From a virus, in the UHGV virus genome UHGV-0196721: a stretch of 45,223 nucleotides of DNA; one strand, given 5' to 3'. Shown here in pieces: positions 9,001 through 12,000 of the stretch (positions are counted from its first letter, which is position 1; the number at the start of each line of letters is the position of its first letter). The position numbers were made by a program.

Positions 9001-12000
9001 TTTAGAGGCGCAGGATGTGTTGATAACCTACAGAGGAAAACTACCGGGAATAATTACGGGTTCTCTGAAGAGTCCGCCGAAATGGTAATTTTACCAGCAT
9101 ATTTTTCATCCAGTAATACAGCAAGCCGCCTGAAAGAGTCTTGTTGTTCCTGAGACCATTTGGGATTGCATGATTCAAACTGGATTGATGCCAGCGTTGA
9201 TTGCATCTGTTCCCTTGGAATTGAGAATGCCAGATATGAGAAGGCGACGGTAAGGGTATTCACGTCTTCCCGAAGCCTGGAAATGCTGTCGAGCAACTCC
9301 TGTAGAGAAATGGTGTTATTGTCCATAAATAATCCTCATGATTGTATTGACCTGTTAGCAGCCTGAGGCAACAGGCTGGAACTGATAAACATATCCAGGG
9401 CTCAGAAACCGATAAATCCTGATAAATATCCATGAACGCAAAAATCAGATACGGCCTGTCGGCTGCCGTTCTGGCGCTGATTGCCGCTGGTGCGCCTGCG
9501 CCTGACATTCTCGACCAGTTTCTGGATGAAAAGGAAGGTAACCACACCACGGCATACCGTGATGGTGCGGGTATCTGGACCATCTGCCGCGGTGCCATCC
9601 TGGTGGATGGCAAACCTGTCGTTCCGGGCATGAAGTTGTCGAAGGAAAAATGCGACCGGGTTAACGCCATTGAGCGTGATAAGGCGCTGGCATGGGTGGA
9701 GAAAAACATCAGAGTGCCATTGAGTGAACCCCAGAAAGCGGGGATCGCGTCATTCTGTCCGTACAACATTGGTCCCGGTAAGTGTTTCCCGTCGACGTTT
9801 TATAAACGAATTAATGCAGGTGATCGCAGGGGAGCGTGTGAGGCGATTCGCTGGTGGATTAAGGACGGTGGCAGAGACTGCCGTATTCGTTCAAACAACT
9901 GCTACGGTCAGGTATCCCGTCGTGACCAGGAGAGCGCGCTGGCGTGCTGGGGAATCGACAGATAAGCAGAATATTTTGCTGAAAAATAAGGTATGGCCAC
10001 GCGGGCGGATAACACGAAATCCTGCGAACTGGCGAAACGTAAGTGAATAAAAGTAAAAACCCCGTTTGTTGGCACCAAGCGGGGTTTTGTGTTTCCTGAC
10101 TCCGGAAAAGTCAAAGGAGAAAGTGTGTTTGATTTTAGCAAACTGATTCGGGAGATTCGAGTGATGGCTGAAAAATTATCCACCTGGAAGTTCATTCTTA
10201 TCTGGCTGGTGTTTGTGATTATGGCCTCCGGTTATTTCATCGGTCAGATACGCTGGTGGTGAAATGAACCGCGTACTGTGCGTGGTCATCATTGCCCTGC
10301 TGGTGGCCTGTGGTGCGCTTAGTCTGGGGCTGAATCATTACCGTGATAACGCCATTACCTACAAAGCCCAGCGCGACAAAAATGTCAGAGAACTGAAGCT
10401 GGCGAACGCGGCAATTACTGACATGCAGATGCGTCAGCGTGATGTTGCTGCGCTCGATGCAAAATACACGAAGGAGTTAGCTGATGCGAAAGCTGAAAAT
10501 GAAACTCTTCGCGCTGACGTTGCCGCTGGTCGTAAGCGCCTGCGTATCAACGCCACCTGTCCAGGTCCCGTGCGTGAAGCCACCGGCACCGCCCGCGTGG
10601 ATAATGCAACCGGCCCCCAACTGGCAGACACCGTTACACGGGATTATTTCACCCTCAGAGAGCGGCTGATGACGATGCAGAAGCAACTGGAAGGGGCGCA
10701 GGAATATATCCGTACTCAGTGCCTGAAATAAGTTTTGTTGATGCGCCGTATCGTCGCTGTATTCCCTCATTAACAGAGACCGCAGCCCGACAGGGAGACT
10801 CCTCTGCGCGAGTGTGCGGGGATAATCAAAAACGATACACACCGGGGTTTACCGCGTTAACGGAGCGCGGCGTTGTCCCCTCATAGTCGCCTGTCCGGTG
10901 CGATGGTGGAAGAAACCGGATGTTTATCACTATTAATTGATGACACAGAAATGGATTCATTGAATTTCAGCACGTTTTTGTATTCGTGTTATTGAACATC
11001 TGTTTATTTTACTTTTAACATATTGATAATAAAAAGAGCTGTAAATCTTTAGATGAGTCGATTTTGTCCGGGGAAGTTCAAGTGGATTTTATGCTGACGG
11101 TTTCTGGTGTGGTTATCCTGTCCATTGCTTATACTGCAGATAAATATGGCTGCCATTTGTTATCACGTATTGGCGCTTATTGTTCGTTGATGCTGATTTT
11201 CTCGTCGCTTTTTTTTGAGTAAGTTATATTAATTATAACAAATAATTTTCTGTGTTATTTTTTCAGGCTATCCCGTCAGAGGGGAAGCCTGTACTGCCGG
11301 GGAGCGAATGGAAAACTGATGTGTCCGGTAACTGCGTGTTCTGTGAACACCATGTTACTTAATTATGTAATTCATACCCGAACTCTCTGTTGACAGCCTT
11401 CTTCTGCAGGCTTCAATAACCCACGCTGAAAAGTTTCCTGAACCTTTCAGATCAAGAGCGATGTTAATTTGTTCAATCATCTGGTTTGGAAATCGGATGT
11501 TGCGGGTTGTTGTTCTGCGGGTTCTGTTCTTTGATGACATAATGTTTCCCCATATTCAGTGTTGCTGATTTGTATTATCTGAAGTTGCTTTTACGTTAAT
11601 TTGATGCAGATCAATTAATACGATACCTGCGTCATAATTGATTGTTCGCTGCATAGCGGTCCGACCCCGTACTGCTCACGCAGCTTATCCAGCAGTGGCA
11701 TCATTTTTTCCAGAGGCGGTCGAACTCCGCCTTCGCAAAATAAGCGGAAGCCTGGCGAAGGATATCGTTACTGCGGCGCAGTTCACGATTTTCACGTTCC
11801 AGCTCTTTCAGACGCTGACGTTCAGCGGTGGTGAGCCCTCCATCACCGCCCCCGGTATCCCGCTCATGCTGGCGAACCCAGACACGCAGAGTCTCCGGCG
11901 TACAGCCAATCTTTGGAGCAATGGAACAAATTGTCGCCCATTGTGAGTCATATTCGCTCTGACTTTCCAGAACCATACGGACTGCCCGTTGACGGACTTC

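Follow-up and report, generated by a model that had tools for sequence, protein, structure and literature searches.

The stretch analysed in this work is 45,223 nucleotides of DNA from the virus genome UHGV-0196721 (hereafter the window). A 298-bp segment of the window, between the stop codon of the endolysin gene and the ATG of the spanin gene Rz (9966-10263), contains a GC-rich hairpin (P1), a second hairpin (P2), and an open reading frame (ORF) of 45 codons that is called ORF45 here. ORF45 is a real gene under selection, and the hairpin and ORF45 form one portable cassette of about 200 bp in the late operons of temperate phages from many genera. We give roughly even chances to the reading that ORF45 encodes a tightly silenced, late-expressed, membrane-active peptide that is probably controlled by a cis-antisense RNA, is possibly made in two forms, and is not a spanin subunit. 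The features of the segment are as follows.

9966 to 10055, plus strand: left arm, non-coding, from the endolysin stop to P1.
10055 to 10094 (core 10060 to 10084), unstranded: P1, GC-rich hairpin, from terminator scan, folding, and covariation.
10092 to 10120, plus strand: P2, hairpin whose 3' arm holds the Shine-Dalgarno (SD) motif AGGAG (10115 to 10119); in the folding, 10092 to 10101 pairs with 10109 to 10120.
10125 to 10262, plus strand: ORF45, 45 codons, GTG start, TGA stop at 10260 to 10262, from phrog_6632, WP_000459345.1, and dN/dS.
10132 to 10160, minus strand: candidate antisense promoter, an extended -10 and a -35-like element with a 17-bp spacer.
10043 to 10125, minus strand: predicted cis-antisense RNA, about 80 nt long, deduced from where the promoter and the terminator lie.
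10150 to 10166, plus strand: candidate internal start, an SD-like motif GGGAG (10150 to 10154) followed after 9 nt by the ATG at 10164 (codon 14, ATG14).

A preliminary description of the window had proposed a short coding frame at this position, and all of its parts are present: AGGAG at 10115-10119, a 5-nt spacer, GTG at 10125, 45 sense codons, TGA, a single base, and the ATG of Rz at 10264. ORF45 matches phrog_6632, a family with no function assigned, from end to end (E = 1.2e-29, residues 1-45 to profile positions 1-45 of 45). The frame had been described as unannotated. This is correct for 22 of the 25 best-matching genomes, which show no feature there, and it is not correct for RefSeq, phage CP-1639, and PHROGs, which hold ORF45. 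The RefSeq entry WP_000459345.1 (hypothetical protein) has exactly the bounds of ORF45 in NZ_CP195804.1, and the CP-1639 copy is CAH23245.1.

The comparison of related loci shows that the frame is kept, with exactly 45 codons in 129 of 147 loci, which goes against the refuting case of a frame that relatives do not conserve. GTG is found at the conserved start in 131 of these loci and GTG or TTG in 133, and an SD-like motif precedes the start in 146. The frame persists over a range that extends from Escherichia to Pseudomonas phages, with 44-98% identity. Analysis of synonymous sites in 21 equal-length members shows that ORF45 is genuinely selected (median dN/dS 0.18, mean pS 0.61 versus mean pN 0.21). 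A profile search of 1.84 billion representative proteins returned 40 clusters of 32-86 amino acids (mostly 42-54), and all of them share the motif SK(L/I)IRE(L/I)RxM...W(K/R)F followed by a transmembrane segment. A longer frame of 57 codons from GTG 10089 was rejected: it begins in the tail of the hairpin, it has no SD, and its upstream part is not conserved in relatives. The sequence searches of Pfam, NCBIfam, PADLOC, and PDB gave nothing meaningful for ORF45 or for the sister peptides that are described below. AgvB, AsxR, Pas, and STnc100 are other loci and sequences and were set aside.

The cassette is widely distributed. DNA similar to the 298-bp segment is found in 2060 of 5426 complete E. 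coli genomes (about 38%), with a median of 2 copies and up to 8 places, and 871 of the complete E. coli genomes cover at least 80% of the segment. It is also found in 323 phage records that are mostly phages encoding Shiga toxin (Stx), including H-19B. Protein homologues of the same length are present in E. albertii, E. fergusonii, and Salmonella. Pattern scans identified further homologues in Citrobacter, Edwardsiella, Yersinia, Izhakiella, Sodalis, Brenneria, Pantoea, Serratia, Trabulsiella, and an Azoarcus metagenome-assembled genome, and Pseudomonas D3-like phages also carry one.

The homology stops at the stop codon of ORF45, and the next gene begins 1-16 nt later. The genes around the cassette vary. 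The architecture is found in endolysin-to-spanin gaps with five endolysin types, and the genes upstream of ORF45 include those for T4-type lysozymes of the signal-anchor-release (SAR) kind and for GH19, GH108, or phrog_873 endolysins. The i-spanins downstream belong to at least three unrelated families (phrog_13, phrog_312, and phrog_214). This gap is the commonest site among the fetched enterobacterial loci. In 23 loci, the cassette is flanked by the genes of a baseplate spike and a baseplate wedge. Other copies follow a lambda-K-like minor tail gene, a tail fibre gene, or a major tail protein gene; one lies between the genes of a head protease and a major head protein, and one lies in the virion module of a podovirus. 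The homologue of Pseudomonas phage YMC11/02/R656 is grouped with other small ORFs among the tail genes. A distant homologue (locus L293, 1501-1635) has P1, P2, and the minus-strand TGCTAGAAT, and it lies between ParE and RelB/YafQ toxin-antitoxin modules. This homologue is not among obvious phage late genes. In the Qin prophage of E. coli K-12, rrrQ (R) and rzpQ (Rz) overlap by 4 nt with no insert and no cassette, so K-12 is no source of experimental data.

The preliminary description had placed a terminator-like hairpin with a T-run after the endolysin gene. The hairpin and its T-run are present (the terminator scan places them at 10056-10088 with 13 pairs), but they are more than a terminator of the endolysin gene: P1 is a part of the cassette and travels with ORF45. 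The core of P1 consists of CCCCGTTTG (10060-10068), the loop TTGGCAC, and CAAGCGGGG (10076-10084), with AAAAA before it and TTTTGTGTTT after it. The segment 10040-10130 folds at -26.5 kcal/mol (z = -2.88), and 3 of 200 shuffles were as good. Within the window alone P1 is not beyond chance, as 4 terminator-like sites were found in 3.5 kb versus 3.5 expected. Its significance comes from the relatives, where it is conserved and covarying. P1 lies 35-45 nt 5' of the start codon in 27 of 27 diverse relatives, and 6 of 7 distant relatives also have a P1-type hairpin. Compensatory changes are found in 9 of 11 pairs called by RNAalifold and in 9 of 13 named pairs. The A-rich 5' flank and the T-rich 3' flank are both conserved, and P1 therefore looks like a bidirectional intrinsic terminator.

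P2 is also maintained. A hairpin of this type that sequesters the SD is predicted in 25 of the 27 leaders with differing sequences (CCTTG/CAAGG, CGTTA/TAACG, GACT/AGTC, and CATG/CATG), and 6 of 9 named pairs have changed on both sides. In a sequence-only MAFFT alignment, 88.9% of the cells in P1 and P2 are paired versus 79.5% in shuffles, a value that 0 of 500 shuffles reach. Compensatory changes affect 15 of 22 pairs of P1 and P2 versus 6.8 expected (0 of 500 shuffles), and shifting the pairing register lowers the pairing to 41-56%. No sense promoter was found upstream of or within P1, either by the promoter scan or by eye. Rfam 15 has no family at the leader or antisense region; this search covered the window at the gathering threshold, 9800-10400 at a permissive threshold, and 10 related loci, and the lone match there was a chance rimP-leader hit (E = 0.1).

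The first codons of ORF45 are constrained beyond the peptide. The synonymous divergence is 0.26 in codons 2-13 versus 0.81 in codons 23-45. Codon 5 is AGC and codon 12 is CGA in all 21 members. GAG occupies codon 10 in 20 of 21, with GAA absent throughout, and T is the only third base of codon 4, though the residue there may be F, I, or L. The arginine codon 43, by comparison, uses five codons. Conservation within the module is highest in codons 2-6, and the sequence on either side is more variable, so these codons are constrained and not recently exchanged. RNAalifold found no sense-strand structure in codons 1-20 that would explain this constraint.

The frozen bases are exactly those of a minus-strand TGnTAnnnT and a -35-like TCG. 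The candidate extended -10, TGCTAAAAT (TGnTAAAAT), is the reverse complement of 10132-10140 in codons 3-6. The -35-like TCGAAT is the reverse complement of 10155-10160, and the relatives have TCG(A/C)A(T/A) 17 bp upstream of the -10. Only position 4 of the hexamer varies, which is the least important position of a -10. In 26 of 27 relatives TGnTAnnnT keeps its register. As a later test, seven distant relatives were fetched: TGn with TAnnnT is present at the expected register in 4 of 7, including a perfect TGATATAAT, and a plain hexamer in 2 of 7. The only distant relative without P1 lacks the motif as well. These patterns suggest a cis-antisense RNA from a promoter in codons 3-6 of ORF45. The predicted RNA would start opposite the GTG, would be complementary to the SD and P2, and would end at P1 and the TTTTTACTTTTATT run. 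Its predicted fold has two hairpins (-23.2 kcal/mol). No such RNA was found in the supplements on small RNAs (sRNAs) or transcription start sites (TSSs) of enterohaemorrhagic E. coli (EHEC).

A second start codon within ORF45 is also suggested by its conservation. All 27 relatives have an invariant ATG14 that is preceded, at a distance of 8-10 nt, by an SD-like motif (GGGAG, GAGG, or AAGGA). The product from ATG14 (10164-10262) would have 32 amino acids and would be essentially the transmembrane helix only. The degenerate copies L023 and L130-132 retain just M14-W45, and the short ORF of L023 directly follows the stop of a baseplate V-like (spike) gene. Some gene callers already begin the protein at ATG14 (P0022 and P0023). 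We infer from these observations that ORF45 may have a dual start with forms of 45 and 32 amino acids.

The proposal of a single-pass membrane peptide is borne out by composition and by the AlphaFold2 model, which place one transmembrane helix in the C-terminal part. The model (pLDDT 85.7) has a helix at residues 4-17, a break, and a helix at residues 20-44. The N-terminal part is amphipathic, the C-terminal part is hydrophobic, and the peptide ends in RWW. By the positive-inside rule, the peptide would be tail-anchored with its N-terminus inside and only RWW in the periplasm.

The same leader precedes other small one-helix peptides, namely the 49-60-amino-acid KYKRILLRLTMKNGLEL (KYKRI) family and the peptides of loci L155 and L181. 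It is also found in the second modules of L152 and L154 and in the first tandem module of E. fergusonii. The peptides of these sister cassettes differ at the N-terminus, yet codons 2-7 still contain a -10-like hexamer on the minus strand (TATACT, TATAGT, TATAAT, TACAAT, TAGACT, or TAATAT). The KYKRI family is unrelated to ORF45 and is also found between endolysin and Rz genes, which speaks for a link of the cassettes to lysis. The R-Rz gap of an E. coli prophage (L194, reverse strand, 5370-5880) is allelic to that of the window. Its left arm and P1 agree near base-for-base with those of the window, and the same hairpin precedes a different cassette that encodes a 60-amino-acid peptide (MAKYKRILLRLTMKNGLEL...) and then a 43-amino-acid transmembrane ORF (MSDKLITLAK...) whose stop overlaps the GTG of Rz. 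The tandem cassettes of E. fergusonii prophages (L008, 2685-2908 and 2932-3138) are flanked by the genes of a GH19 endolysin and a DUF2514 i-spanin. Both cassettes end with TGGTGGTGAtATG, and the peptide of the first is a different one, with 50 amino acids and a KWW end. The gap between endolysin and spanin genes seems to be a preferred place for alternative cassettes of small membrane peptides.

A broader proposal is tentative and in our estimate holds a less than even chance. The cassettes may represent an undescribed class of portable, self-silencing mini-cassettes that colonise the late operons of temperate phages, each with a terminator, an SD hairpin, a weak start, an antisense promoter, and a dual-start peptide. 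The leader would be the common vehicle for unrelated peptides (the ORF45, KYKRILLRLTMKNGLEL, L008, L181, and L155 types). As a class, the cassettes would correspond, on the phage side, to type I toxin-antitoxin systems, and they would serve to tune or back up the last, membrane-permeabilising step of lysis.

The region around the cassette in the window is the lysis cassette of a lambdoid prophage. Its main genes are listed below.

2940 to 3635, plus strand: late antiterminator Q (Pfam Phage_antiter_Q, 1.4e-83).
8524 to 8739: S21-type pinholin (PF04971), the window's own holin gene, which is separate from ORF45.
9432 to 9965, plus strand: SAR-type endolysin R, the upstream neighbour (Pfam Phage_lysozyme, 1.3e-23; phrog_7; hydrophobic N-terminus).
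10264 to 10731, plus strand: i-spanin Rz, the downstream neighbour (Pfam Phage_lysis, 4.2e-51).
10484 to 10669: o-spanin Rz1, embedded in Rz (Rz1, 1e-19).

Two extra genes are inserted between the holin and endolysin genes: a DUF1327/YdfR gene (8744-9088, plus strand) and an ORF of 90 amino acids (9054-9326, minus strand; phrog_2411, no function assigned). The left arm contains a 17-codon mini-ORF, MATRADNTKSCELAKRK, with a weak SD (10006-10059, just 5' of P1), which is unconserved and is broken by an indel in L194. Sequence homology to the left arm upstream of P1 is partial in Salmonella (L004) and Edwardsiella (L015), and this spacer may be a remnant of an older junction. An ORF of 95 amino acids on the minus strand (9908-10195) overlaps P1 and the start of ORF45. 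CP-1639 lists it as hypothetical protein EC_CP1639_38, and in view of the selected plus-strand frame it is likely to be spurious. In CP-1639 itself (L002, 1746-2800), stx1B is followed by the 298-bp cassette and Rz, the annotation shows neither a holin nor an endolysin in between, and the lysis cassette appears to be truncated upstream of the ORF45 cassette.

Other RNA and mobile elements were identified elsewhere in the window. Three tRNA genes and then two STnc100 sRNA copies (136 and 165 bits) are found at 5296-5542, 5620-5810, and 6088-6297. They lie downstream of Q and a DNA methylase, in the usual pR'-proximal region of Stx-type phages. An Rfam match to the sok antitoxin RNA (761-936, plus strand, 120 bits) marks a hok/sok-type locus elsewhere in the prophage. 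A DicF sRNA match (39591-39642, minus strand, 77 bits) is on the opposite strand and distant from the lysis cassette. An insertion sequence lies about 1 kb past Rz, with an ALIL frameshifting pseudoknot (11647-11746, minus strand) and an IS3-family transposase orfA (11701-12027, minus strand).

The proposed mode of action of ORF45 is as follows. The segment 9966-10263 is an insertion between the endolysin gene and Rz that carries the cassette, and we infer that the cassette is transcribed only with the late operon, under antitermination by Q. Up to four layers would keep the peptide silent at other times. P1 would halt ordinary RNA polymerase, P2 would occlude the ribosome-binding site, and the GTG would act as a weak start codon. 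The probable fourth layer is the cis-antisense RNA of about 80 nt, which would be terminated at P1 and would pair with the ribosome-binding site and the start codon. From what is known of lambdoid phages, Q-modified polymerase would be expected to read through P1. Heavy late transcription would then override the antisense RNA by titration and promoter occlusion. As the lytic cycle ends, the product would target the inner membrane, either as a small membrane toxin or as a holin/antiholin-type modulator of lysis timing. The preliminary description had offered an antiholin-like modulator or a membrane toxin next to a spanin component, and the former two become more plausible with the multi-layer silencing. 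Q is also found upstream of the cassette in L008 and in SPN3UB.

The dual-start holin genes are among the closest known systems. Lambda S105/S107 and phage 21 S68/S71 are holin/antiholin pairs from dual-start genes with an sdi RNA stem-loop. ORF45 resembles them in being a small membrane protein of a late lysis cassette with two candidate in-frame starts that each have an SD-like site, and the proportion of its two possible products could be set by the RNA hairpin that covers the first ribosome-binding site. It also has the size of a holin (45 amino acids) with one transmembrane helix and lies between R and Rz in the window, a position that is not universal in the family. Unlike lambda S, the predicted starts of ORF45 are 13 codons apart and not 2, the charge is N-terminal with a single transmembrane helix, and there is no sequence similarity. 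ORF45 has no match to the holins of Pfam, NCBIfam, or PHROG, the window already has an S21-type pinholin, and the cassette is also found outside lysis cassettes.

The proposed antisense RNA has precedents in P22 sar RNA and lambda oop, which are phage cis-antisense RNAs of the immunity region that target ant and cII. The likeness is a short antisense RNA that starts in or next to a gene and covers its ribosome-binding site, as predicted for ORF45. Those RNAs differ in their targets and genome region and have no sequence relation to the ORF45 cassette.

The releasin gp25 of phage Mu is another small protein to be compared. It has 99 amino acids, a DUF2730 domain, an N-out/C-in topology, and an acidic cytoplasmic domain (PMC9239132). 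It resembles ORF45 as a small single-pass protein with almost no periplasmic part that is encoded beside a SAR endolysin in a late operon (PMC9239132). ORF45 is not a releasin and differs in its 45 amino acids, its predicted N-in topology, which is opposite to the releasin arrangement, its basic amphipathic helix, and the absence of a DUF2730 match in Pfam. Furthermore, it accompanies soluble GH19, GH108, and phrog_873 endolysins.

Several observations weigh against the reading of ORF45 as a silenced late membrane peptide. The proposed antisense promoter has a weak -35 (3 of 6 matches) and is not called by the promoter scan of the window. The folding energy of the hairpins favours neither strand (13 of 27 leaders). 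The counts of G-U versus A-C are contradictory between P1 and P2 and depend on the alignment. Neither measure was used to assign a strand to the hairpins. P1 as an efficient sense terminator would harm head and baseplate operons that perhaps have no antitermination (L152 and L290), and P1 may be mainly relevant on the minus strand, or weak. The conserved M14 and E10 could come from protein-level selection alone. ORF45 has no charged C-terminal domain of the holin kind, its charged segment being N-terminal. The position of many copies outside lysis cassettes means that a role in lysis is not required. No mention of the locus was found in the literature searched, which included the supplements of EHEC on Ribo-seq small genes, the Hfq-CRAC sRNA tables, the supplements of EDL933 on TSSs, and the preprint on the Pas sRNA. 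Lastly, the relatedness of the sequences inflates the motif counts.

The rival that survives best is a selfish or defence module akin to type I toxin-antitoxin systems, which we consider doubtful. In this explanation, a membrane toxin and a labile antisense antitoxin would stabilise the prophage, or would kill on superinfection or transcription shut-off. Type I systems with an antisense RNA overlapping the 5' end of the toxin gene include SymE/SymR; Ibs/Sib, Zor/Orz, and hok/sok are other type I systems. The likeness of ORF45 to the SymE/SymR type is a hydrophobic peptide below 60 amino acids (45 amino acids with one transmembrane helix), a structured leader with a buried SD and a non-ATG start, and a predicted short cis-antisense RNA over the ribosome-binding site with its own promoter and intrinsic terminator. 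The cassette is also mobile, often in multiple copies per genome and at many unrelated sites, and one homologue lies among ParE and RelB/YafQ modules. Unlike those systems, ORF45 rides the late operon, has no conserved sense promoter, and has no homology to known toxins, including the PADLOC models and the type I toxin families of Pfam. Its conserved 5' edge is the terminator-like hairpin, so a stable pool of toxin mRNA in the lysogen is unlikely, and the module is always co-oriented with late genes.

It is rather improbable that ORF45 is a lysogenic-conversion moron whose hairpin is incidental. As such, the small membrane protein would be expressed in the lysogen, where it might serve in superinfection exclusion or modulate a host membrane protein. 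Classical morons, for example HK97 gp15 and lambda bor and lom, are expressed in the prophage from a promoter of their own and have a terminator on the 3' side, and small membrane morons such as HK97 gp15 exist. The cassette is similar to them as a discrete, terminator-associated extra gene among late genes that lies between genes adjacent in related phages, is variably present, and occupies many different junctions. The copy of YMC11/02/R656 among small ORFs within tail genes also fits. However, the terminator of the cassette is on the 5' side, directly upstream of ORF45; none is found 3' of it, where the next gene starts 1-16 nt on, and no sense promoter was found. Together with the buried SD and the GTG start, these features all oppose expression in the lysogen and point to repression there.

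There is a small chance that the minus-strand RNA is the main product and acts in trans on host or phage targets, with the peptide being secondary or merely passing ribosomes onward. The unit of promoter and terminator is better conserved across the cassettes than any single peptide, the leader carries at least four unrelated peptides, and the conservation peaks at codons 2-6. Against this, the ORF45 peptide is under clear purifying selection over its whole length, there is no Rfam family, and no Hfq-bound sRNA with a matching sequence has been reported.

The preliminary description had also considered ORF45 as an extra spanin component. The related explanation, that ORF45 is a component or regulator of the spanin complex that is translationally coupled to Rz, is very unlikely. 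The window shares the junction of the stop, 1 nt, and the ATG of Rz with Salmonella, Citrobacter, and E. fergusonii, and the gap before the spanin is the commonest enterobacterial site. However, this tight 3' junction is general to the cassette, as in a copy where a baseplate wedge gene begins 4 nt past the stop. The neighbouring spanins are unrelated to one another, and many copies have no adjoining spanin, including those between baseplate genes and those after tail or head genes. The varied flanking genes and the Qin prophage without an insert therefore leave the spanin idea unsupported. The transmembrane domain of ORF45 is C-terminal, and since only about three residues (RWW) reach the periplasm, the peptide cannot span it. 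There is also no lipobox and no match to the Pfam families Phage_lysis, Rz1, or DUF2514. The last alternative, a functionless chance ORF beside an ordinary terminator, could appeal to the short length, the lack of annotation by most callers, and the terminator scan that is not enriched in the region, but it is practically dismissed by the dN/dS (0.18), the covariation of the hairpins, the length of 45 codons in 129 of 147 loci, and a frame, start, and SD that persist across genera.

The cassette is real and widespread. It resembles dual-start holins, type I loci, and morons, and it fails at least one defining feature of each. It lies inside the well-studied S-R-Rz lysis cluster of lambdoid phages, including H-19B and many Stx1- and Stx2-converting phages, yet it is usually unannotated. 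These findings make a case for including the ORF45 family and the sister cassettes in the gene callers used for phages. If the antisense RNA and the dual start are true, the cassette would be a compact and tractable example of the layered silencing of a toxic peptide, and its conserved regulatory leader would be reusable as a carrier of different small membrane peptides. If the peptide is membrane-active, it would be an overlooked player in lysis timing, and in Stx phages this would bear on the timing of toxin release.

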